A stretch of DNA of 64,000 nucleotides. Origin: Candidatus Saccharimonadales bacterium. GTDB lineage: Bacteria; Patescibacteriota; Saccharimonadia; Saccharimonadales; OMJO01. Both the position numbers and the translations under genes were made by a program. Location: contig DATIID010000001.1 in the NCBI GenBank assembly GCA_035480035.1, positions 329,323 to 393,322 of the forward strand, written 5' to 3'. Under the pieces are notes generated by a model. The model was not told where the DNA came from. It did no database searches and saw nothing but the letters and a program-made list of their open reading frames with translations. This document shows, one piece after another, positions 17,015 to 54,822 of the stretch (the stretch's first letter is position 1; the number at the start of each line of letters is the position of its first letter).

Positions 17015-17713
17015 TCAACGCCGGTAATACCCTAAGGCTGCCTCAGCAGCAGCAACTTGGCCAGCTTGTTTACTCGGCCCAGTGCCCTCGCCTTTTAGTT
17101 TACCGTCAACAAAAACTCCAACTGTGAAGTTTTTTTCATGATCTGGACCTTCTTCTGATAACACCTTGTATACAGGGGTAAATCCGGCTTGACTTTGAAC
17201 TAATTCCTGAAGATGCGACTTGGGATCAACCCAAGAACCACTGGTTAAAATATCATCAAAAGTAACAAGTACGGTGCTTTTAATAAACTGTTTAGCCACA
17301 TCATAGCCCTTGTCTAGATAAATAGCGCCGATTACCGCTTCGTAACAATTGGCCAGAATTTGAGCTCTAGCTCTTGGAGTACCACGTTTTTCACCACGAC
17401 TAAGCCTTAATAATGGTTCAAACTCTAGTTTAGCCGCGGCCAAACTAATACTTTCAGTCCGTACCAATGCGCTGCGCCAATTAGTCAAAACACCTTCCGG
17501 ATCAGAATGATTAAGGTAGAGGTATTCAGTCACCACCAATTCGAGCACCGCATCACCCAAAAACTCTAGTCGTTCATTGTGTTCTTTAACGGTTTTACGG
17601 TGTTCGTTTAGATAAGATCGATGTGTAAAAGCCGTGACCAACAGGTCAGTATTACTAAATTTGATCCCCAATTTATCATTAGCAAAAGCAATATAAGAAT
17701 TAACGTCTGGCAT
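17015..17713 (-). CDS. rnc: Ribonuclease III
   Basis: It has the NERLEFLGDAVLE signature and a C-terminal dsRBD. Confidence 0.9.
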   Translation of the reverse strand: MPDVNSYIAFANDKLGIKFSNTDLLVTAFTHRSYLNEHRKTVKEHNERLEFLGDAVLELVVTEYLYLNHSDPEGVLTNWRSALVRTESISLAAAKLEFEPLLRLSRGEKRGTPRARAQILANCYEAVIGAIYLDKGYDVAKQFIKSTVLVTFDDILTSGSWVDPKSHLQELVQSQAGFTPVYKVLSEEGPDHEKNFTVGVFVDGKLKGEGTGPSKQAGQVAAAEAALGYYRR

Positions 17714-19050: not shown

Positions 19051-19440
19051 ATGAATAAAGTTGTGGATTTTCCAGTCGAACGCACTAGAACACTCGAAAA
19101 AACGCCCAATTACAAGGCACGTAAAATTTTTGCGTCGGTTGTGGCTTTAGGTACTTTAGGTGTTGTTGGTGTAGTAACAACTAATACTTTTGTTACTGAA
19201 CAAACCGAATGTGCTACAACAACACCAGCTGACAGTCGTTGGCAAAGTGCACAATCTGCTTCAGACTTATTACAAGCTAAGGGCGTTTATATCCCTAACG
19301 AAAATGAAGTAGAAACTTTGGTCAGAACTCCACTTGGCGGTGAAGAAATTTGTGGTACGGCTTATATTGGAGCAACCGTTCTAAAACCTGTGGCTCAGCT
19401 AATTCACAATTATAATAACCTACATCGAGCTAGCGATTAA
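19051..19440 (+). CDS. Hypothetical membrane-anchored protein (129 aa)
   Basis: It is an ORF with one N-terminal TM helix (IFASVVALGTLGVVGVVTT). I see no recognisable motif. Confidence 0.45.
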   Translation: MNKVVDFPVERTRTLEKTPNYKARKIFASVVALGTLGVVGVVTTNTFVTEQTECATTTPADSRWQSAQSASDLLQAKGVYIPNENEVETLVRTPLGGEEICGTAYIGATVLKPVAQLIHNYNNLHRASD

Positions 19441-22331
19441 ACCACAAAATTAATCAATTTTTGCGGTACGTAAATCACTTTACGTACCGTTTTTGTATCT
19501 AGAAATTTAGCAACGTTGGCTTCGGCTTTGGCAGCAGTCTCAATGTCGTCTTGACCAACTCCGTTCGGTACTTCGATATTGGCTCTAACTTTACCATTAA
19601 CTTGGATAACGATAGTCATGGTGTCACTAACTATGTATCGGTCATCAAATATTGGCCAATGGCCAATGTGGACACTATCATCATGACCAAGTTGATGCCA
19701 CAGCTCCTCAGCAATATGTGGTGCAAATGGAGCAATCAGCATAACTAAACTCTCAAGCGCAAACTGCCAGGTCTCGCGATCGGCAAATTTATCAGACTTA
19801 AGTTTATACAGTTCGTTAGTGCACTGCATAGCCGCCGCTATGGCGGTGTTATATTTTTGATGTTCGATGTCATCCGACATTTTTTTAATGGTAGTGTGGA
19901 TAGTTTTAAGAATTCCATCTGTGTTCTTTGAGGTAGTGCTAATTTGGCTGGCCTTAAACTCGTCAACCAAGGTCCAAACTCGTGATAAAAAGCGATAGGT
20001 GCCCGGTACGCCTTGGGGATCCCACCTGGCCCAAAGTTCTAAAGGTGCGGCAAACATTAAATAAGTCCTTAGTGCATCTGCACCATATCCACTGTCAATG
20101 ATTTCTAGCGGATCAACACCGTTACCTTTACTCTTTGAAAACATTTGGCCGTCACTGGCCGTGACCTTACCGTTAAACAAGAATTGCTTGAATGGTTCGG
20201 GCTCGTTAATTAGCCCCAACCGCTTAAAAAAGCGGGCTACAAAACGGGCATAAAGTAAATGAGCCGTGGCGTGGTCGGCGCCGTTATAGAAATCGATCGG
20301 TTCCCATTTTTGGACAATTCTAGTATCAAAGATGGCTTTTTCGTTTTTTGGATCAAAGTAACGAAACATGTACCAGCTGCTGTCGATGTAAGTGTCGAGT
20401 GTGTCGGTTTCACGTTCAGCCGAACCACCACAGTTTGGACAGTCAACCTTCAACCAGTCAGTGGCTCGAGCTAAAGCACTACGCCCGTCACCGCTCGGGG
20501 CATAATCCTTTAGTTCCGGCAAAACTACCGGCAAATCCTCATCGGGTACTAACACGGCGCCGCAGTCAGGACAATGAATTATTGGAATCGGTGCGCCCCA
20601 ATAACGCTGGCGACTAACACTCCAATCACGCATTCGATAATTGGTTTTAACGCTAGCCAAGCCTTTTTTAGCTAAATCGTCGACCACTTTTTCACGCATG
20701 TCACTCGAGATTAGGCTATTATATTTACCAGAATTAACCATGATGCCTTCGCCGGTGTAGCATTCACCCAGTAGTAGTTGTCGATAAAAGGTTTCGTGAA
20801 TGCCATCGTCAAGCAAATTAGCGACTTTGTCTTTAGCTACCCACGTAACTTTAAACTTGTCGTTTTCGCCGTCATTCATGTCACGCTCAACTTGTTTGTT
20901 GCTGACCAGCTCGAATAACAAACCGGTACAATGGCCAACATAGTTTTTATTTTTAACGTTCGAGAAAAAGTAACCATGCCCGCGGGCAGCCAGTTGACGA
21001 ATAAATTTAATGTCGGTGAAGCCAGTTTCTTCGGCAATTTCTCGTTTAGCAGCTTCGACTAAATCTTCGCCAGGCTCGACACCGCCGCCGATTAACATTT
21101 GACCGCCAGTTCTTGGTAGCCGCGGTCCCCAATCAAGCACAATTACTTTATTATTTTTGGGGTTAAAAACAGCGGCGATAATTTTTTCCTTATGAATATC
21201 ATCGCCTTGCGGTTCACCATAAACCGGTTCAATCACATCAATAATCGGTAGGTCGAATTTGACGGCAAATTCATGATCACGGTCATCATGGGCGGGGACA
21301 GCCATAATGGCACCAGTGCCATAACCAGCTAAGACATAATCAGCAATCCAAATTGGTAGTTTTTCATGATTAGCCGGATTTATGGCATATGCCCCCGTAA
21401 AGACGCCAGTTTTGTGTTTGGCGGTTTGACGCTCTACTTCAGTCTTTTTTTCAGCGATTTTGACATAACTATCTACTTTAGACTTTTGCGATGAGGTAGT
21501 GATTTCGGAAACCAGTTCGTGTTCGGGCGCTAAAACCATAAAGGTTGCGCCAAATAAGGTATCCGGCCGGGTCGTAAAGACTTTGATATTGTGCTTCGAC
21601 TCACTGATAGTAAAGTCAATTTCGGCACCTTGGCTTTTGCCAATCCAATTACGCTGAGCCAGCTTGACGCTATCTGTCCAATCCAAATCATCAATGGCAT
21701 CGAGCAACTCGTCCGCAAAATCGGTAATTTTGAAAAACCATTGTTTAACTTCACGCTTTTCAACCATTGGGTCATCCGGTCCATCGTGGCGCCAGCACTT
21801 GCCATCGATGACCTGTTCGTTAGCTAGCACCGTATTATCAACGACGCACCACCACTGCAAACGTGAATCTTGATAAGCTAGACCGTGCTTGTGCATTTGA
21901 CTAAAGATCCATTGAGTCCATTTGTAGTAAATTGGTTCGTGACTGGCAATTTCTTTGCTCCAATCGTTACTCCAACCCATAGCTTTGTATTGATGATGGT
22001 AGTTAGGAATGATGTTGGCCATTGATTCCTGAGGTGACACGCCAGATTTGATGGCATAATTTTCGGCTGGCAAACCAAAAGAGTCCCAGCCAACTGGATG
22101 GTAGCTTTCATAGCCTTGTTGACGCTTAAATCGGGCCAAAACATCGCTGATGGTGTAGTTCATAGCATGACCAATATGAATACCGGCGCCACTCGGGTAG
22201 TTGAACATGCTCATGGCAATATATTTAATTTTGGAACTACTTAAGTTCGCCTTGTAAGTTTGGTGATCGTCCCAATACTTCTGCCAGCGTGGTTCTAGTT
22301 CCTTTGGGTCATAACGTATCATACCAATCAA
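19437..22331 (-). CDS. leuS: Leucyl-tRNA synthetase with an inserted Nudix-like domain (964 aa)
   Basis: It has HIGH (IHIGHAMNY), the CP1 motifs TTRPDTLFG and AVPAHDDRDHEF, the Zn knuckles CPDCG/CPNCG and a KMSKS variant FSKSK. It also has an extra ~145 aa carrying the Nudix box GGVEPGEDLVEAAKREIAEETGF. Confidence 0.9.
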   Translation of the reverse strand: MIGMIRYDPKELEPRWQKYWDDHQTYKANLSSSKIKYIAMSMFNYPSGAGIHIGHAMNYTISDVLARFKRQQGYESYHPVGWDSFGLPAENYAIKSGVSPQESMANIIPNYHHQYKAMGWSNDWSKEIASHEPIYYKWTQWIFSQMHKHGLAYQDSRLQWWCVVDNTVLANEQVIDGKCWRHDGPDDPMVEKREVKQWFFKITDFADELLDAIDDLDWTDSVKLAQRNWIGKSQGAEIDFTISESKHNIKVFTTRPDTLFGATFMVLAPEHELVSEITTSSQKSKVDSYVKIAEKKTEVERQTAKHKTGVFTGAYAINPANHEKLPIWIADYVLAGYGTGAIMAVPAHDDRDHEFAVKFDLPIIDVIEPVYGEPQGDDIHKEKIIAAVFNPKNNKVIVLDWGPRLPRTGGQMLIGGGVEPGEDLVEAAKREIAEETGFTDIKFIRQLAARGHGYFFSNVKNKNYVGHCTGLLFELVSNKQVERDMNDGENDKFKVTWVAKDKVANLLDDGIHETFYRQLLLGECYTGEGIMVNSGKYNSLISSDMREKVVDDLAKKGLASVKTNYRMRDWSVSRQRYWGAPIPIIHCPDCGAVLVPDEDLPVVLPELKDYAPSGDGRSALARATDWLKVDCPNCGGSAERETDTLDTYIDSSWYMFRYFDPKNEKAIFDTRIVQKWEPIDFYNGADHATAHLLYARFVARFFKRLGLINEPEPFKQFLFNGKVTASDGQMFSKSKGNGVDPLEIIDSGYGADALRTYLMFAAPLELWARWDPQGVPGTYRFLSRVWTLVDEFKASQISTTSKNTDGILKTIHTTIKKMSDDIEHQKYNTAIAAAMQCTNELYKLKSDKFADRETWQFALESLVMLIAPFAPHIAEELWHQLGHDDSVHIGHWPIFDDRYIVSDTMTIVIQVNGKVRANIEVPNGVGQDDIETAAKAEANVAKFLDTKTVRKVIYVPQKLINFVV

Positions 22332-30850: not shown

Positions 30851-30898
30851 TTCGTGTCTACAGAAATAGTCCACCGGACTATTCTGCCCGTATCTCCA
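30851..30898 (+). pseudogene. Partial, interrupted copy of the tRNA-Ala 3' end
   Basis: TTCGTGT, then a 29-nt hairpin (30858-30886), then CCCGTATCTCCA aligns to the tRNA segment TTCGAGTCCCCGTATCTCCA. Confidence 0.6.
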
Positions 30899-45473: not shown

Positions 45474-45605
45474 ATTTCTATAATAACAAAACACCCGTGG
45501 AACAGTGTGTTAAAAATCATACATTGGTGCATTATTCTAATGGAATTATAACAACGAAAGTCATGCGGTGCTATAATTATGCCAATATGTCGAGGATGTT
45601 ATGTC

Positions 45606-46100
45606 ATGGAAGATCTGCTAAAGAAAATATCGCAATACCAGCTGTTTAACTTCCTGTTATCAGGTGCGCTGCTTGCTGTTTTGCTGAAACAAACCACTTC
45701 TATCAACTTGATCTATGAAAATACTATCGCCGAGTTTTTCGCATTTTATTTTATTGGGCTTGTCATTAGTCGAGTTGGGTCGTTGATAGTCGAACCTTGG
45801 TTAAAAAAACTAAAAATAGTAACTTTTACACCTTATTCCGAATATCTTGTTGCAGCAAAATCAGATAAAAGAATAGACATTCTATCTCAAGAAAACAACA
45901 CGTATCGTACACTAATCGCCACATTCTTAGTTTTTGCAGCGATATATATTGTTACTAAATATGCAGGCAGCTTTATCCGACAACATCACACATTGATTGT
46001 CTACATATTTATGGGCACAATGCTTGTGCTCTTTACACTAGCCTACCATAAGCAAACTAACTATATTGCTAAACGTATTAAAAATACCCAGACTAAGTAG
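45606..46100 (+). CDS. Hypothetical membrane protein
   Basis: It has four hydrophobic helices. The start is set at MEDLLKK; the track ORF begins at 45579. Confidence 0.4.
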   Translation: MEDLLKKISQYQLFNFLLSGALLAVLLKQTTSINLIYENTIAEFFAFYFIGLVISRVGSLIVEPWLKKLKIVTFTPYSEYLVAAKSDKRIDILSQENNTYRTLIATFLVFAAIYIVTKYAGSFIRQHHTLIVYIFMGTMLVLFTLAYHKQTNYIAKRIKNTQTK

Positions 46101-48013: not shown

Positions 48014-48141
48014 TGTGTCCCGGACGAGAACTGGATTACTGCGAAGCAGTCAGTTCGGTGAAGCGAGGTCACGCGCAAATGCTTGCATTGAGCATGACCG
48101 AACGGAAAAGGACGAAGTCCGCTGTCTGGGAGGAGCCACCA
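48014..48141 (+). pseudogene. Interrupted copy of the tRNA-Phe 3' portion (variable loop, T arm, acceptor, CCA)
   Basis: It reads TGTGTCCC, a 29-nt insert (48022-48050), CAGTTCG, a 66-nt insert (48058-48123), then GTCTGGGAGGAGCCACCA. This aligns with 47942-47975. Confidence 0.65.
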
Positions 48142-49351: not shown

Positions 49352-49435
49352 GCGCGAGTGGTGGAATGGTAGACACGCTTGTCTGAGGGGCAAGTGCCGC
49401 AAGGCGTGGAGGTTCAAGTCCTCTCTCGCGCACCA
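49352..49435 (+). tRNA. tRNA-Leu(GAG), type II, CCA encoded
   Basis: The sequence is GCGCGAG-TG-GTG-GAATGGTAGA-CAC-G-CTTGT-CTGAGGG-GCAAG, a long variable arm, GGAGG-TTCAAGT-CCTCT-CTCGCGC-A-CCA. Confidence 0.9.
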
Positions 49436-49533
49436 AACAATTCAGATATCCTGGGATATTTGAGTTGTTTGCATATGACAGGTCTTGAACCTTGGTCGAA
49501 AATGTCCTGTGGACATTTGAGTTTTCCTTGCTT

Positions 49534-49594
49534 GGCCGAGTGAGAAACGCATTTCGAACGAGCAATTAGAGTACAAGTCCTCTCTCGCGCACCA
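49534..49594 (+). pseudogene. Decayed tRNA-Leu(GAG) copy
   Basis: Its last 21 nt (49574-49594, CAAGTCCTCTCTCGCGCACCA) are identical to the tRNA 3' end. Its 5' part, GGCCGAGTG..ACGC, resembles GCGCGAGTG..ACGC with the D/anticodon region deleted. Confidence 0.55.
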
Positions 49595-49707
49595 GTGAAA
49601 ACGAATCTGTAAAACTAACTCATTCACCTAAAGTCTGTGATACAGCTTACAGACAAAACCAGCAATCAGCTTATAGTTGATAAGTTCAGGAGGTGCAGTA
49701 ATCATAT

Positions 49708-50004
49708 ATGGTTGAATCAGTACCGAACAGGGTTAGACGAGCCATTGGTGGTTTCCAGAGAACTGTACTTAACCAAGGTTACATTGATTATTTAACAGAT
49801 CGCGAAAAAGAGGAAAAAGAATATATTGACGGTCGCTTAGCCGAAATGGCCGGCCGGCTGGCGCTTAAACGCGAACGCCAGCCAAGTGAACGGTCCGACG
49901 AAGAATTCATTTTGGCCGAGGAGCTGTTTGATTTAGAGCGTGGACGAATTAAATTAGACCAGCCTGAAGCGGTTTCCTCGGTAACTGAGGAGTTGCCAAA
50001 ATAG
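49708..50004 (+). CDS. Hypothetical protein (98 aa)
   Basis: It is an ORF with an AGGAGG-like Shine-Dalgarno (caggaggtg) upstream. The sequence is charged and predicted helical, with no recognisable motif. Confidence 0.4.
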   Translation: MVESVPNRVRRAIGGFQRTVLNQGYIDYLTDREKEEKEYIDGRLAEMAGRLALKRERQPSERSDEEFILAEELFDLERGRIKLDQPEAVSSVTEELPK

Positions 50005-50072
50005 CATTTATATAATTTTGTCATTGAATCGCCATTAAAAAAGTGTATATTGAGTAATCAACTGAGGAAATT

Positions 50073-50537
50073 ATGGCACTTGCAAATGAATCAAAGACAG
50101 AATCGAGATTGACTGACGGCTTTATGGTAGCCCATACGCCGGTATTACATCGCGGCGATAAAGTTAATTCTACGATTCTAATTACAGCCGGCCTAATCGA
50201 AAGAGTAACTCTTCGGACACTCACTGGTATTGAGGATTATCCATCTTATGAATCTGCGAACTCAGCCCTAGCTAACTGGGTTGGCCGATTTGCTACCGAC
50301 GAACTATTGGATAACGAATTTAGGGCGTCCGGTTGGGATGCAAAGCGATACGATTCAATAGCTGATCTAGATAAGCTTGATCCGCGTCGACAATTGCCGT
50401 TTCTAATTCGTGGCCAAGAAGAGTTGGGTCGTTTAGTGATTTGTTCTGAGATAAATGACCCAGAAATGTTTGAAGTCGAAACTGAATTTACACCACGGGC
50501 GATTGATTTCTTAGAAGAAATCGGCGTTTTAGGGTAG
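50073..50537 (+). CDS. Hypothetical protein (154 aa)
   Basis: This is an ORF only, with a GAGGAA Shine-Dalgarno-like sequence upstream. Confidence 0.4.
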   Translation: MALANESKTESRLTDGFMVAHTPVLHRGDKVNSTILITAGLIERVTLRTLTGIEDYPSYESANSALANWVGRFATDELLDNEFRASGWDAKRYDSIADLDKLDPRRQLPFLIRGQEELGRLVICSEINDPEMFEVETEFTPRAIDFLEEIGVLG

Positions 50538-50601
50538 AATAATCGTCGAGTCAGCTGAAGCGCTTTGGTGAGTTAGCTGTTTATTAGTAGAATAAGACGA
50601 C

Positions 50602-50675
50602 GGCGCGATGGCCGAGGAGTTAGGCAAGGGTCTGCAAAACCCTGTACACGAGTGCGAATCTCGTTCGCGCCTCCA
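50602..50675 (+). tRNA. tRNA-Cys(GCA), CCA encoded
   Basis: The sequence is GGCGCGA-TG-GCC-GAGGAGTTA-GGC-A-AGGGT-CTGCAAA-ACCCT-GTAC-ACGAG-TGCGAAT-CTCGT-TCGCGCC-T-CCA. The discriminator is U73, as in Cys tRNAs. Confidence 0.85.
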
Positions 50676-50693
50676 TAGTAGTAATGAGACAAA

Positions 50694-50731
50694 CTAGTTA
50701 CCCCAAGAAGTAAACTTCTCGTGGACCCCGA
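50694..50731 (+). repeat. Hairpin element, copy 3 (degenerate): CTAGTTACCCCAAGAAGTAAACTTCTCGTGGACCCCGA
   Basis: It shares the ends CTA..ACCCCA and GTGGACCCCGA with the two copies at 52719 and 52773. The internal stem sequence differs but is still self-complementary. Confidence 0.6.
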
Positions 50732-50808
50732 GTACGGTTTTTCTCATCGCTCGTCAGCCAAGCTGAGTTTGCGAGCAAACCAAGCTCGCTGCTCTTTTCC
50801 CTTTAAGA

Positions 50809-50814
50809 TATAAT
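50809..50814 (+). promoter_or_regulatory. TATAAT -10 box upstream of tRNA-Leu(TAA)
   Basis: AGATATAAT ends 14 nt before the tRNA 5' end. Confidence 0.35.
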
Positions 50815-50828
50815 GCGGTTGACCACTC

Positions 50829-50916
50829 GGGCGAGTGGCGGAATTGGTATACGCGACGGACTTAAAATCCGTTGGCTGAATAAGCCTTGTGGGTTCAAGT
50901 CCCACCTCGCCCACCA
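50829..50916 (+). tRNA. tRNA-Leu(TAA), type II, CCA encoded
   Basis: The sequence is GGGCGAG-TG-GCG-GAATTGGTATA-CGC-G-ACGGA-CTTAAAA-TCCGT, a long variable arm, GTGGG-TTCAAGT-CCCAC-CTCGCCC-A-CCA. Confidence 0.9.
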
Positions 50917-50922
50917 TTTTTA

Positions 50923-52560
50923 TTAGCTGGTAGGCAAATGATTTAGTAAGTGATCAAGTGCGTAACTTTGACGAAGAAGCGGCTTGATATCATCGATTGA
51001 GACATTGACTTTAACACCTGGGTTGAGTGTGCCGTAGGGGTCAAAAATTTCCTTGAGCTTTCGAAACATTTCATAACGCTCATTACCATAAAGCTTCTTT
51101 AGGTAAGGGCCGCGCAAACGACCGTCGCCATGTTCGCCAGTCGTACTACCACCCAAATCAATCACCAAACTGTAATATTCATCAAGCAATTTAAACATTT
51201 TTTGACGATCACCAATCTGTGACAAATTCAGGAAGGGCTGGAAGTGCAAATTACCATCGCCGGCGTGTCCCCAAACAGCGGTATCAAGCGAGTATTTGCT
51301 AAATAACTCGTAGACTTTATCCAAATATTGTTTGAACTTGTCAATTGGGACTATTCCATCTTCTATAATTGGCAAAGGCTTGGCGCCATTGTTGGCTTGA
51401 TTGACTAACAAAGCCGCCGAATGACGAATTTTCCAAAGAGTTTCTTGTTGCTGTTCTTCAGTTTCAATTTGATAAGTAATCTGGTTTTTCTTAAGTAGTT
51501 TTTCAACCTTTTTAGTCATCTTTTTTTGAATACGATCAGACGAGTTATCGAATTCCACCAATAATATGAGTTTAGGAAATGGTTGTTTGACGATACCCTT
51601 TAGCAAGTTTGGATTGGTCTCATGAATAAAGTTAAGTAAATTAACATCAACGGCTTCCATAGCGCTTGGCCGTTCAGCAAATTTACGCAGTTCAATCATA
51701 ACTTCTTCAGCCAACTGCAAGTCATCAAAGAAGATTCCAATTAAGGTGCTGGATGGGTTATAAAGCTCGGTCTTTAAGGTAATTTCACTTACTACTCCGA
51801 GCGTACCTTGCGAGCCGACAAACAGTGGCGTCAAATCAAAACTACCATCTTTTCGTTTAACTTTATCAAGAGCGTAGCCGGCCGAGTTTTTGGTAATCGG
51901 CAGGTTCATCATGACCAAATGTTCGTGATTTTCTTCAATCAATTTATCAAGACTACGATAGACTTCGCCTTCAAAGGTTGATAAACCGAGCTTCTTATTA
52001 AGTTCGCGCTTACTTAACCGACCGGTGGTAATAACTTCACCATTAGCCAAAACAACCCGCAAAGTCTTAACGAAATCACGGGTAGACCCATACTTGATTG
52101 ACCGCTCGCCGCCGGCGTTATTGCCAACCGCCCCACCGACTGTACTAAATTCCAGTGAGGCTGGATATGGCGGCAAAAAACGTCCATGCGTGTGAAGAGT
52201 CTGTTGTAACTTACCATAGTTAATACCCGGCTCAACGACCACGGTGCCGACCTTGCCATCGAGTTCGATAATCCGATTCATATGAGCCGGAAAAACCATG
52301 ATGATACCACTGCCGAGCGCCGCGCCACTTTGATCGGTACCAAGCCCACGAGCCGTTATTGGCATAACCCGACCGCGTTCAGCTAACTGCCATGAGAAAC
52401 GGGTAACTTTACGAATATCATTTTCGTTTCGTGGATAAACAATAATCGAAGGCGTGACAGTTAACACGCTGCCGTCCGTCGAGAAATAAGCCCGCGCTTC
52501 CGTGCTGGTAATAACTTCTCCGGCCATGTGTTCTTGTAAATAATGTGCGACTTTGTTCAT
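50923..52560 (-). CDS. FAD-binding oxidoreductase (GlcD-like), paralog of 11264..12922
   Basis: It has TARGLGTDQSGAA, GGAVGNNAGGERS and GGSTTGEHGDG, the same architecture as the other copy. Confidence 0.75.
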   Translation of the reverse strand: MNKVAHYLQEHMAGEVITSTEARAYFSTDGSVLTVTPSIIVYPRNENDIRKVTRFSWQLAERGRVMPITARGLGTDQSGAALGSGIIMVFPAHMNRIIELDGKVGTVVVEPGINYGKLQQTLHTHGRFLPPYPASLEFSTVGGAVGNNAGGERSIKYGSTRDFVKTLRVVLANGEVITTGRLSKRELNKKLGLSTFEGEVYRSLDKLIEENHEHLVMMNLPITKNSAGYALDKVKRKDGSFDLTPLFVGSQGTLGVVSEITLKTELYNPSSTLIGIFFDDLQLAEEVMIELRKFAERPSAMEAVDVNLLNFIHETNPNLLKGIVKQPFPKLILLVEFDNSSDRIQKKMTKKVEKLLKKNQITYQIETEEQQQETLWKIRHSAALLVNQANNGAKPLPIIEDGIVPIDKFKQYLDKVYELFSKYSLDTAVWGHAGDGNLHFQPFLNLSQIGDRQKMFKLLDEYYSLVIDLGGSTTGEHGDGRLRGPYLKKLYGNERYEMFRKLKEIFDPYGTLNPGVKVNVSIDDIKPLLRQSYALDHLLNHLPTS

Positions 52561-52718
52561 AAATCTGTCTGACTCCCAAGTGCTTAACCTTAAAGCATTA
52601 GCGAGGCTATGAACAATATGATAACACAGCTAGCTCATCGAAGTTGGTTAGGAGTTGCTTTTAGGTGGCTTATAGCGTTAAGATTGAAAAGCTTTTAGCT
52701 TATGCGGATATGGCGGAA

Positions 52719-52754
52719 CTATACCCCACAAAGCAAGCTTTGTGGGGACCCCGA
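52719..52754 (+). repeat. Hairpin element, copy 1 (36 nt), inside the D loop of the split tRNA
   Basis: The sequence is CTATACCCCACAAAGCAAGCTTTGTGGGGACCCCGA. Removing it restores TGGCGGAATTGGTAGACGCG. Confidence 0.75.
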
Positions 52755-52772
52755 TTGGTAGACGCGCTAGTC

Positions 52773-52811
52773 CTACACCCCACAAAATGTTAAATTTTGT
52801 GGGGGCCCCGA
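52773..52811 (+). repeat. Hairpin element, copy 2 (39 nt), in the anticodon-loop region of the split tRNA
   Basis: The sequence is CTACACCCCACAAAATGTTAAATTTTGTGGGGGCCCCGA, with an 11-bp stem and the same termini as copy 1. Confidence 0.75.
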
Positions 52812-52828
52812 TCTTTAATTGAATTGAT

Positions 52829-52915
52829 GCCGCAGTGGTGAAATTGGTATACACGCTAGCTTCAGGAGTTAGTGAGCGCAAGCTCGTGGAGGTTCAAGTC
52901 CTCTCTGCGGCACCA
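52829..52915 (+). tRNA. tRNA-Leu(CAG), type II, CCA encoded
   Basis: The sequence is GCCGCAG-TG-GTG-AAATTGGTATA-CAC-G-CTAGC-TTCAGGA-GTTAG, a long variable arm, GGAGG-TTCAAGT-CCTCT-CTGCGGC-A-CCA. Confidence 0.9.
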
Positions 52916-53040
52916 TTTCGATTAAGGAAATGTGGTCTCCATTAAAGCCTTTAGACTTTAATGGAGATAAAGCAAAGGAGCTAGTGAGCGCAAGCTCGTG
53001 GAGGTTCAAGTCCTCTTATCCGCACCATAAAGGTAGTTTA

Positions 53041-54822
53041 TTAGTTTGCTACTTTGGCCTGACGAATCATCCAGTTATTAACATTTGAAAATCGATCGGC
53101 TTCAGTATTAACAGTTGTCGGGTCAAAGCCAAAAATTGGTTTTCGGCTTATGTATAAAAAGCGTGGTTGATAAAGCACAATCGCCGGGACATCATCACGC
53201 CAAGCTTGCAAAAACGGCTTATATTTAATTCTTCTAATCGTTGGGTCAGTACGACTGCGTCCAGCTTCTAGCGCCCTATCAGCCGTAAGTGATTTATACT
53301 CCGATAAATTAAGTCGATTGGTCGAATGTGGATCAGCTTGTGAACTATGCCAATAAACGAACACGTCGGGATCCGGACCAATCGAAATACCATAAAGTAG
53401 GGCGTCGTATTCATGACGCGCCACTGCACCTTGCAAATCAACTGCTGGTTCTAATTCAACTTCGGTAGTAACTCCTTCTCCTTGCCATTCAGTTTGTATT
53501 TTTTGAGTTAAATAAGTATATTCACTGGAGTTTCGAGCTAATAAGTGGACAATAAGCGGCTGACCGCCTTTCATGCGCATACCCTGTTTGTTTCTAACCC
53601 AACCCGCATCGTTGAGTAGTTTGTCACTTGAAGCAAGGTTATATTTATATTCCTTAAGTGAAGGATCGTAGCCAGTTTGGCCTTTTAATAAAGGTTCGTC
53701 GGCAATCACTACGGGAAAAGTCAGATTATTAATAATATCGGCTTGTTTTGTGGCTTGAGCTAAAGCCCGACGCACCCGAAAATCCTTAAGGTTGGGTGCG
53801 GTGGTCTTCAGAAAAACTACTACTTCACCACTAATCGGAATGTTGTAATTTTGTATATTTTTTTGTTTTGCCAAATTATCCGGGATATTATCAAGCCCCA
53901 CCATAGCGTCAAGTTCGTTATGGTTATAGCTGTCAATCATGTGCTTTTCATCACGGAATGAATGAATCGTAAGGAAATCAATATTGGGCCGACCACCATA
54001 ATATTGGTCGAAGGCTTTGAGACCAATTTTTTCTTCGCGAGTTTCGGGAGTATCGCCGCTAACCTCAATCTTTTCCAGTTTAAACGGGCCTGAACCGATA
54101 GCGTTCGTTGAGTTAAAGCGAACTGAACGTAGTTGGGTCGGTGGGACACTAGATAGTAAATGTTTCGGCACAATACCATTAGTTAACGAATACGGGAAAG
54201 AGCCCAGGGCATTTGGTAAGGTGAAAACAACCGTGTACTTGTCTTTTGCGACGACCTTTATTCCCTGCCAGCTGTTAAATAATGACGATTTGGCATCCGG
54301 ATTTTGGATAGTTTTGTAAGTAAAGACCACGTCATCAGCTGTCAGTGGCTGACCGTCATGCCAAAACAAATTATGGCGAAGTTGTATCGTAAAAGTGACG
54401 GCCCGGTCATCACTATGCCACTTGTCGGCTAAGTCACCGGTTAACTGATTGTTTTGATTAGTCTTAAGCAGACCCGAAAAAACTAGCCGAGAAACACTAC
54501 TATCAACAAGACCATTAGCATAAAGCGGGTTGGCGTTAGTAAATGATCCCAAAATACCTTCGTTAAACGTGCCGCCAGCGACCGGCTGAAGCGTTTGGTA
54601 ATAATTGCCCAGTACTATATTTTGAATAATTAAACTAGCGATTAAGACCACCATTAGGATTAACCAACCGGCAATAAAACGACGAACTTCCGTCAAACGG
54701 TTGACGCGACGGAAAAGATGTCTTTCCAAGTTTTCTTCTGCCTGAAGACCCATGTCTTCAACTTGGCGCCGACTCTGGCGAATTCGTCGTCGCCAACGCA
54801 ACTTGGTAGTTCGATCAATCAT
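53041..54822 (-). CDS. ABC-type peptide/nickel (family 5) substrate-binding protein, membrane-anchored, with no adjacent permease
   Basis: It has an N-terminal TM helix. Its size and motifs (FHDGQPLTADDVVFTY-like WHDGQPLTADDVVFTY, GSGPFKL) fit SBP family 5. Confidence 0.7.
   Translation of the reverse strand: MIDRTTKLRWRRRIRQSRRQVEDMGLQAEENLERHLFRRVNRLTEVRRFIAGWLILMVVLIASLIIQNIVLGNYYQTLQPVAGGTFNEGILGSFTNANPLYANGLVDSSVSRLVFSGLLKTNQNNQLTGDLADKWHSDDRAVTFTIQLRHNLFWHDGQPLTADDVVFTYKTIQNPDAKSSLFNSWQGIKVVAKDKYTVVFTLPNALGSFPYSLTNGIVPKHLLSSVPPTQLRSVRFNSTNAIGSGPFKLEKIEVSGDTPETREEKIGLKAFDQYYGGRPNIDFLTIHSFRDEKHMIDSYNHNELDAMVGLDNIPDNLAKQKNIQNYNIPISGEVVVFLKTTAPNLKDFRVRRALAQATKQADIINNLTFPVVIADEPLLKGQTGYDPSLKEYKYNLASSDKLLNDAGWVRNKQGMRMKGGQPLIVHLLARNSSEYTYLTQKIQTEWQGEGVTTEVELEPAVDLQGAVARHEYDALLYGISIGPDPDVFVYWHSSQADPHSTNRLNLSEYKSLTADRALEAGRSRTDPTIRRIKYKPFLQAWRDDVPAIVLYQPRFLYISRKPIFGFDPTTVNTEADRFSNVNNWMIRQAKVAN

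Follow-up and report, generated by a model that had tools for sequence, protein, structure and literature searches.

Three hairpin elements of 36-39 nt lie in or beside tRNA genes within a 64,000-nt stretch of the genome of a Candidatus Saccharimonadales bacterium (assembly GCA_035480035.1, contig DATIID010000001.1, positions 329,323 to 393,322; called the window below). The hairpin family is real, and a specificity for tRNA is not supported. With about even confidence, the three elements can be regarded as copies of a short mobile DNA palindrome, similar to the repetitive extragenic palindromic (REP) sequences, that landed in neutral DNA at a tRNA integration hot spot. In the best reading of the data, the association with tRNA is local rather than the result of targeting, and the family is low-copy and new.

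All copies share one layout: a 5' tag, CTAYA; a stem of 10-12 bp, composed of a foot, CCCCAC/GTGGGG, and a varying inner part; a variable loop; and a single-stranded tail, A/G-CCCCGA (Table 1). A pattern search of the 64 kb gives exactly three matches, all on the + strand (50701-50731, 52724-52754, and 52778-52811), and the same pattern gives none in 100 shuffles. A covariance model, built from nine family members that include the window's own three copies as training sequences, finds these three only, at 53.8, 49.2, and 41.3 bits, when it is run over both strands with filters off. Thus, pattern and model recover precisely the copies that had been picked out by the sequence-only reading, an earlier description of this DNA made by a model from the letters and their open reading frames (ORFs). 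That reading recognised no known repeat family, and no Rfam family matches the hairpins: searches of the whole window at gathering thresholds, and of 50550-53100 at E <= 5, return tRNAs only.

The same reading proposed that the termini are conserved and that the inner stems differ and stay complementary. This holds across the nine members, which come from four lineages: 98% of cells pair, two-sided changes are present in 6 of the 11 pairs, and no shuffle reaches the score. It does not hold for every copy. Copies 1 and 2 are perfect hairpins of 10-11 bp with fold z scores of -5.0 and -3.5, whereas copy 3 has two mismatches in the foot, forms only 9 of 11 pairs, and with z = -0.7 folds no better than shuffled sequence. 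Assembly GCA_964572305.1 is 100% identical to the window over 49382-52883, a segment that includes all three copies, and the Logan assemblies SRR9179559 and SRR9179560 are 100% identical over about 50888-52856, which includes copies 1 and 2. Three independent assemblies agree with the window at every base of copies 1 and 2, and one of them also at copy 3; the hairpins are therefore not an assembly artefact.

The intact tRNAs of two relatives (L005 and L003; sequences used for comparison are given by L numbers) provide empty orthologous sites, and against these copy 1 is seen as 36 nt cleanly inserted in the D loop of a tRNA-Leu(CAG), which it splits as GGCGGAA|TTGGTAGACGC without target duplication. 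After 18 nt of tRNA sequence there follows copy 2, which is placed directly after the 5' strand of the anticodon stem of the same tRNA. Copy 3 begins 18 nt past tRNA-Cys, as the sequence-only reading stated, and upstream of a terminator-like hairpin. The gap between tRNA-Cys and tRNA-Leu(TAA) is only 18 nt in L023 versus 153 nt in the window; thus, copy 3 lies in lineage-specific extra DNA. The covariance model detects no family hairpin in about 90 kb of syntenic loci of Saccharimonadales relatives (L001-L005, L023, L024, L029, L030, and L032), so that empty and filled sites cannot be compared for copies 2 and 3. The left flanks of family copies (GGAA, AGTC, CAAA, TACG, and GATA) have nothing in common. 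Together with 20 nt on each side, tRNA genes make up about 13% of the non-coding DNA of the window; the link between hairpins and tRNAs is nominally unusual, rests on two or three events, and is weak.

The placement of copies 1 and 2 in the D loop and the anticodon-loop region of a tRNA-Leu was correct and understated, because the tRNA that they interrupt is the outer member of a nested pair of genes. A second, complete tRNA-Leu(CAG) sits in the anticodon loop of the first. The inner tRNA has its own acceptor stem, GCCGCAG/CTGCGGC, and its own D stem, each internally compensated. The 3' half of the outer gene is a 53-nt direct repeat of the 3' half of the inner one (91% identical), and the outer acceptor strands pair at 7 of 7 positions, the 3' strand being complementary to 52704-52710. 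Without its inserts, the outer gene has 95% identity to its intact tRNA-Leu(CAG) counterpart in L005 and differs from it by a compensatory change at 7:66. This identity indicates that the outer gene is the ancestral resident, whose anticodon is duplicated by the inner one, and the presence of a complete tRNA-Leu(CAG) within it makes the interrupted outer gene redundant. ARAGORN and Rfam call only the inner gene at this locus, and rebuilding the outer anticodon loop needs arbitrary choices. Probably, the outer tRNA-Leu(CAG) was split by an insertion that brought the replacement tRNA-Leu(CAG), and is now a pseudogene.

Two features of this locus call for care. Short-read contigs break inside the 53-nt tRNA-Leu repeats, and hence the join of inner tRNA, 60-nt block, and outer 3' half (about 52884-52996) is without independent confirmation; the complementary outer acceptor strands would nevertheless argue for the nested join being real. 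In addition, the hairpin of the 60-nt block bears a weak likeness to the family when read on the minus strand (CTCCAT...ATGGAG-ACC), and this likeness is not significant (E = 5.8). A composite element, in which copy 2 and an inverted degenerate hairpin (52934-52966) would bracket the inner tRNA, is therefore left as speculation. A Campbell-type single crossover in the shared 3' half was rejected, since it predicts the wrong order: both tRNAs retain matching acceptor strands.

In the collections scanned outside this genome, the family is rare and shows no association with tRNA. The sequence-only reading had proposed a genome- and metagenome-wide pattern search. A strict pattern, CTANA-CCCCAC...GTGGGG-R-CCCCGA, in which the sequence of foot and tail is forced, was scanned in three collections; it gives 5 matches in 185,579 species genomes and 2 in the JGI metagenome collection, and the pattern without the CTANA tag gives 6 matches in IMG/VR. 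None of these is annotated as Saccharibacteria (the contig of L012 is unassigned). ARAGORN finds no tRNA gene in the five match loci that were scanned (L006-L009 and L012). Thus, the statement that the hairpins occur only inside or next to tRNA sequences is true within this window, whereas every copy found elsewhere lies outside tRNAs; the shared core, ACCCCA followed by a covarying stem of 10-12 bp and GGGG-A-CCCCG, is rare in other phyla and never within a tRNA. Beyond the forced foot, every match has 1-6 further complementary pairs (only one in L016), and the stem is 10-12 bp long in all matches but L016, where it is about 7 bp. The tail is also specific: in viral contigs, ACCCCGA follows a CCCCAC/GTGGGG hairpin in 6 matches, versus 1, 0, and 0 for three scrambled tails.

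These members occupy varied contexts. A copy in a Bacillota metagenome-assembled genome (MAG) equals copy 2 at 32 of 34 non-loop positions, yet the BipA proteins of the two genomes are only 46% identical. This copy sits in a structured intergenic repeat of about 370 nt (fold z = -5.3), which is seen at at least three sites and has no Rfam match; the same MAG carries a diverged member in the loop of a terminator stem (L006:121-160). In L012, a low-GC contig, a copy with a different inner stem is intergenic, between a terminator and the start of a gene; L028, a relative of L012, gave no empty-site comparison, as it is not syntenic on the relevant side. Contigs of Acidobacteriaceae and of phages carry GC-rich copies within ORFs, where they encode ..HPTDEDLSVGTP... 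BLAST of one 40-nt copy against plasmids and phages returned partial matches at chance level only, and nothing relevant to the DNA motif, or to the peptide that it encodes (HPTDEDLSVGTP and variants), came up in full-text literature searches.

The acidobacterial sister subfamily is polymorphic for insertion, which shows that it was recently active in the lineage of Terracidiphilus. At one site, LpxI orthologues with 81-99% identity to the query carry 0, 1, 2, or 3 units, in frame. LpxI forms of 282 residues read ..EAEAS|TLERR.. at the insertion point, and others contain one 14-residue unit, two units nested together, or three in tandem. The DNA unit is 42 nt, a hairpin followed by ACCCCG-RCGYT, and is missing from the empty allele of L025; its core, ACCCCA, stem, GGGG-A-CCCCG, is common to the window copies. 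The peptide of the unit (Table 1) was not found in the searchable literature. The variation in unit number is a DNA-level gain or loss, and the units are translated; since the reading frame runs through them, the RNA there keeps them. Common descent of the window copies and this subfamily, the outer termini of which differ, is plausible.

Table 1. Coordinates of the hairpins, the nested tRNA-Leu(CAG) locus, other features of the window, and related loci in comparison sequences
Feature	Position	Strand	Description
Hairpin copy 1	52719-52754	+	36 nt: CTATA-CCCCACAAAGC-AA-GCTTTGTGGGG-ACCCCGA; D loop of outer tRNA-Leu(CAG)
Hairpin copy 2	52773-52811	+	39 nt: CTACA-CCCCACAAAAT-GTTAA-ATTTTGTGGGG-GCCCCGA; junction of outer anticodon stem and inserted block
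Hairpin copy 3	50694-50731	+	38 nt, degenerate, 9/11 pairs; tRNA-Cys/tRNA-Leu(TAA) spacer of 153 nt
Outer tRNA-Leu(CAG), whole span	52704-53029		ancestral gene
Outer tRNA-Leu(CAG), piece 1	52704-52718	+	acceptor 5' strand GCGGATA, D stem, start of D loop; GCGGATATGGCGGAA
Outer tRNA-Leu(CAG), piece 2	52755-52772	+	remaining D arm and 5' strand of anticodon stem; TTGGTAGACGCGCTAGTC
AT-rich spacer, 17 nt	52812-52828	+	TCTTTAATTGAATTGAT; in the predicted fold pairs with 52917-52927, lengthening the inner acceptor helix
Inner tRNA-Leu(CAG), complete	52829-52915	+	ARAGORN; Rfam tRNA model, 53 bits; alignment
60-nt block between inner tRNA and outer 3' half	52916-52975	+	contains hairpin of 11-13 bp, 52936-52967
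Outer tRNA-Leu(CAG), 3' half	52976-53029	+	AGGA, GCTAG, variable arm, T arm, TATCCGC, ACCA; ends TATCCGCACCA
CTACA-initiated hairpin and 12-nt duplicate of tRNA-Ala 3' end	30858-30886 and 30887-30898	+	part of the pattern of tRNA 3'-end duplications
Duplicates of tRNA 3' parts	30887-30898, 48124-48141, 49574-49594, 52976-53028		12-53 nt long
Terminator-like hairpin after copy 3	50771-50789
Reverse-complement tRNA-Leu T-arm segment	49477-49492		GACAGGTCTTGAACCT
FAD-linked oxidase gene	50923-52560
RNase III gene	17015-17713
Leucyl-tRNA synthetase gene	19437-22331	-	NUDIX hydrolase domain at residues 386-517
173-residue ORF	45579-46100	+	phrog_11864, E = 1e-30
lpxI unit loci	L026 934-1057; L010 6219-6258; L025 empty		peptide HP(T/S)D(E/R/K)D(L/P)S(V/L/P)GTP
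Bacillota repeat of about 370 nt	L007 1980-2520; L008 4590-5080; L006 5400-5817		L007 copy has an additional 47-nt hairpin insertion

Many tRNA genes of the window and its relatives are scarred. Downstream of 4 of the 9 window tRNAs (Ala, Phe, Leu-GAG, and Leu-CAG) there is, at a distance of 65-149 nt, a direct repeat of the tRNA's own 3' part. Terminator-like and other hairpins occur in the intervening DNA, with a terminator-like hairpin after the tRNA and a second terminator after the repeat. These duplicates look like very short remnants of elements that integrated at tRNA genes. The hairpin beside the tRNA-Ala duplicate, which the sequence-only reading had listed as a relative interrupting the tRNA-Ala 3' copy, does exist (fold z = -5.4), but it gives no match to the covariance model at E <= 10 and, instead of interrupting a tRNA copy, abuts the 12-nt duplicate. 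A reverse-complement segment of a tRNA-Leu T arm is also present, within the 138 nt that separate tRNA-Leu(GAG) from its 3' duplicate.

Relatives were compared at the SBP-tRNA-Leu-FAD locus. L001, L003, and L032 have one clean tRNA-Leu(CAG) gene there. In L005 (608-1010 and 2069-2411), an orphan 5' fragment of tRNA-Leu(CAG) precedes about 1.5 kb of inserted genes and an intact tRNA; in L023 (9435-10000, minus strand), an orphan 5' fragment with a D-loop insertion of 13-16 nt is followed in turn by a near-complete tRNA, a 93-nt insert, and a 3' fragment; and in L029, L030, and L031 (2019-2340), a tRNA-Leu(CAG) copy broken in the T loop lies upstream of an intact one. The tRNA-Leu(CAG) and the FAD oxidase gene point in opposite directions in the window and L023, and in the same direction in L001, L003, L005, L029, and L032; these differing orientations indicate an inversion at the locus.

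In the mechanism proposed here, the element would spread as DNA. An enzyme, most plausibly a single-strand transposase of the HUH/Y1 type or else another structure-specific recombinase, would be encoded outside the window; by analogy with the Y1/HUH transposases acting on REP and IS200/IS605 hairpins, it would recognise the folded foot of the hairpin together with the fixed flanks. Such recognition would explain why foot, tail, and stem length are conserved and the inner stem is merely complementary. Insertion is without target duplication and is tolerated in the loops of other hairpins, in spacers, and, if the insert is a multiple of 3 nt, in ORFs; two copies would have entered the split, redundant tRNA-Leu(CAG) and one the extra spacer DNA after tRNA-Cys. 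The window copies are presumably mobile themselves, and a mobilising enzyme is presumed with them. Of the suggestions made by the sequence-only reading, tiny mobile palindromes is the one that the data support best, given the precise insertion of copy 1 and the presence/absence and copy-number polymorphism in lpxI. The preference for tRNA DNA that it attached to this suggestion is not needed, as the interrupted tRNA-Leu is redundant and lies at a locus that has been repeatedly rearranged in relatives.

Several observations weigh against a mobile palindrome. The sequence-only reading had looked to a co-occurring nuclease or recombinase gene, and the 64-kb window has no transposase, RAYT, integrase, recombinase, or splicing gene (RAYT was checked among ORFs of at least 150 residues). 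The window offers only three copies, and no empty-site allele of them was found; the four other assemblies all match the window exactly. The described REP superfamilies carry a GTAG or CGTC tag (PMC3733652), which is missing here. The insertion sites have no common target sequence, and two divergent genomes, those of the window and L023, have D-loop insertions at nearly the same position of an orphan fragment. Homology between the Saccharibacteria and acidobacterial subfamilies is not proven, since the scans forced the sequence of foot and tail and the outer termini differ. Finally, the outer tRNA carries no disabling point mutation: all of its stems pair, and its 7:66 difference from L005 is compensatory. 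An undamaged outer tRNA fits a recent disruption and also continued function.

Other explanations of the hairpins have been weighed. They may be leftover recombination sites or debris of integrative elements that attach at tRNA genes, with no independent mobility; this is possible but doubtful. In its favour are the 3' direct repeats of tRNA-Ala, -Phe, -Leu(GAG), and -Leu(CAG) with hairpin-rich DNA between, the orphan tRNA-Leu(CAG) fragments that flank inserted DNA in L005, L023, and L029-L031, the position of copy 2 exactly at the junction of the orphan 5' part and the inserted block, and the resemblance of 11-bp stems with short spacers to recombinase core sites. However, copy 1 stands isolated as a clean 36 nt in a D loop with no other foreign DNA, the hairpin unit also stands by itself in unrelated settings and phyla, lpxI holds 1-3 of the units in frame and in tandem, the inner arms vary among copies in a way ill-suited to sequence-specific core sites, and the inserted blocks of relatives contain no family member. 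It is less probable again, and on balance unlikely, that tRNA transcripts contain the hairpins as native RNA elements, acting as processing or stability signals such as minihelix-like substrates of RNase P or RNase Z, or as RNase III sites. All three window copies do lie on the tRNA-coding strand within tRNA transcription units, copy 3 is placed between tRNA-Cys and a terminator, an RNase III gene is present in the window, and a stem of 10-12 bp followed by A/G-CC recalls an acceptor/T minihelix with discriminator base and CC. Yet no examined relative has the hairpins in its orthologous spacers or tRNAs, cleavage at the two copies that lie within a tRNA body would destroy that tRNA, other members are in translated ORFs, no Rfam family matches, and the first stem pair is C-G as opposed to the G1-C72 typical of tRNA. 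Each of these two explanations covers part of the data; neither accounts for copy 1, which is inserted cleanly and on its own, or for the unrelated settings of the family elsewhere.

Excision at the RNA level, the other suggestion of the sequence-only reading, is unlikely and finds no support in these data. In its full form, it would make the hairpins and the nested block intervening sequences that a bacterial system splices from the outer pre-tRNA-Leu, leaving the outer gene functional. The outer tRNA is indeed intact except for the insertions; both hairpins are in loops, like archaeal non-canonical introns; by inspection, CTCAGGA, which would be a legitimate anticodon loop for CAG, could remain once copy 2 and the block are taken out; and the orphan fragment of L023 has its insertion at nearly the same D-loop site. 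Nevertheless, this is quite improbable. A bulge-helix-bulge (BHB) intron was sought by inspection and rejected, because CTAYA and CCCCGA have no complement in the exon contexts GGCGGAA/TTGGTAG and CTAGTC/TCTTTAA, so that the constant termini cannot make a BHB with two different exon contexts, and the predicted fold is a plain hairpin. The 64-kb window has no EndA or RtcB gene, the acidobacterial units are held to 42 nt, in frame, and translated, which would be needless if the RNA excised itself, the complete inner tRNA-Leu(CAG) makes the outer one unneeded, and exact exon junctions in the anticodon loop need special pleading. Slightly more remote still is a working multi-intron bacterial tRNA gene served by a BHB-independent cut-and-ligate system that would recognise the hairpin foot and flanks, with a second tRNA gene inside the anticodon-loop intron. 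Least probable of all is chance similarity or an assembly artefact. The contig breaks in the tRNA-Leu repeats, with the unconfirmed join at about 52884-52996, speak for it; on the other side, not one match occurs in 100 shuffles, the independent assemblies agree, and complementary acceptor strands of the outer halves are not expected from a mis-join. For the hairpins themselves, this explanation is already refuted.

Among known systems, the closest kind is the REP-type short palindromic repeat. REPs are mobilised by RAYT Y1 transposases, the RAYT gene is often flanked by REPs, and a genome carries tens to hundreds of copies. Like the hairpins described here, REPs are imperfect palindromes of 20-40 nt with a fixed short tag beside the stem and a short conserved tail; compensatory change keeps the stem, and there is no target duplication. 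REPs are likewise mostly intergenic and downstream of genes, and sometimes in frame within ORFs. The REP superfamilies are tagged GTAG or CGTC, and some reported REPs insert inside ORFs (PMC3733652). The window shows a repeated short palindrome, as expected of a REP: each of the three copies is 36-39 nt long and has a stem of 10-11 bp. In contrast, its tag is CTAYA on the 5' side and A/G-CCCCGA on the 3' side, and the GTAG/CGTC end tag is absent; copy 2 does contain CTAC, complementary to GTAG, but at the wrong flank of its stem. Within the window, the count of copies is very low, at three in 64 kb, and no RAYT gene is seen among ORFs of at least 150 residues; near-identical copies in different phyla are a further difference. 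Because the defining tag is missing, the hairpins are not a member of the REP superfamilies but a separate family that behaves alike. Neither the GTAG/CGTC tags nor the acidobacterial TIRYT motif GGGGWSAS fits GGGGACCC.

Other systems share single features. Rickettsia palindromic elements, of 100-150 bp and restricted to Rickettsia, are selfish and insert in frame in protein genes and also in RNA genes; the acidobacterial lpxI units are likewise in frame without destroying the gene, but the family here is far shorter and has no sequence similarity to them. The cyanobacterial small dispersed repeats (SDR), 'mini-MITEs' of about 21-27 nt, were reportedly found by Elhai et al. in 2008 to reach high copy number and to nest in hairpin loops, including that of a tRNA-Leu(UAA) intron. 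As far as this description goes, they resemble the present family in being a few tens of bases long, nested in loops, and preserving the secondary structure of the host; they differ in sequence, size, phylum, and copy number, which is low here. Archaeal non-canonical tRNA introns, found in the multi-intron tRNAs of Thermoproteales, need EndA, an RtcB-type ligase, and a BHB, in which exon and intron form a 4-bp helix between two 3-nt bulges at both splice sites; they are thought to spread between tRNA genes. They too are short, mutually similar hairpin inserts in D and anticodon loops, but the present host is a bacterium, no BHB is possible, and the family is mostly outside tRNAs. IS200/IS605 elements and their miniature derivatives, the palindrome-associated transposable elements (PATEs), have two distinct ends with different subterminal hairpins, insert 3' of a fixed tetra- or pentanucleotide, and are moved by a Y1 HUH transposase that binds a single-stranded hairpin. 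The CCCC...GGGG foot and the lack of target duplication are similar, but a miniature element derived from IS200/IS605 was rejected, as the family has one hairpin only and no two copies share a left flank. A miniature inverted-repeat transposable element (MITE) does not fit either, since the element is a single palindrome rather than a body bounded by terminal inverted repeats and copy 1 has no target-site duplication. Nor does a group I intron: at E <= 5, 50550-53100 has no Rfam match but tRNA, and the block is only about 165 nt and mostly tRNA. TIGR arrays have regular repeats, spacers of similar length, and tas genes (PMC12045711). A CRISPR- or TIGR-type array was rejected, with just two adjacent copies, an 18-nt 'spacer' of tRNA, and no cas or tas genes in the window.

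The gene content of the window is otherwise housekeeping (UvrA, UvrC, LeuRS, LigA, RNase III, and ribosomal proteins). The FAD-linked oxidase has 100% identity to a protein that NCBI assigns to a Candidatus Saccharimonadales MAG. The leucyl-tRNA synthetase contains an inserted NUDIX hydrolase domain that directly follows the editing domain. The 173-residue ORF, 1.7 kb upstream of the tRNA-Gly/Phe pair, has no Pfam match and matches a phage family of unassigned function.

A more unusual sequence feature than the hairpins is the nesting of the tRNA-Leu genes, together with the widespread scarring of tRNA genes in this lineage. They show the tRNA genes of these reduced Saccharimonadales genomes to be heavily scarred integration sites, with 3'-end duplicates, orphan halves, and a tRNA inside a tRNA. 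The annotation of tRNAs in the candidate phyla radiation is affected, since ARAGORN and Rfam report the inner gene only, and hairpin-interrupted tRNA-like fragments in such genomes should be called introns only with RNA evidence. If the reading as a mobile palindrome is true, there would be a very small (36-42 nt), low-copy palindrome family whose foot and tail are common to Saccharibacteria, a Bacillota MAG, Acidobacteria, and their phages. Such a family, without the tags of the known REP superfamilies, would point to a candidate structure-specific enzyme that moves between phyla.

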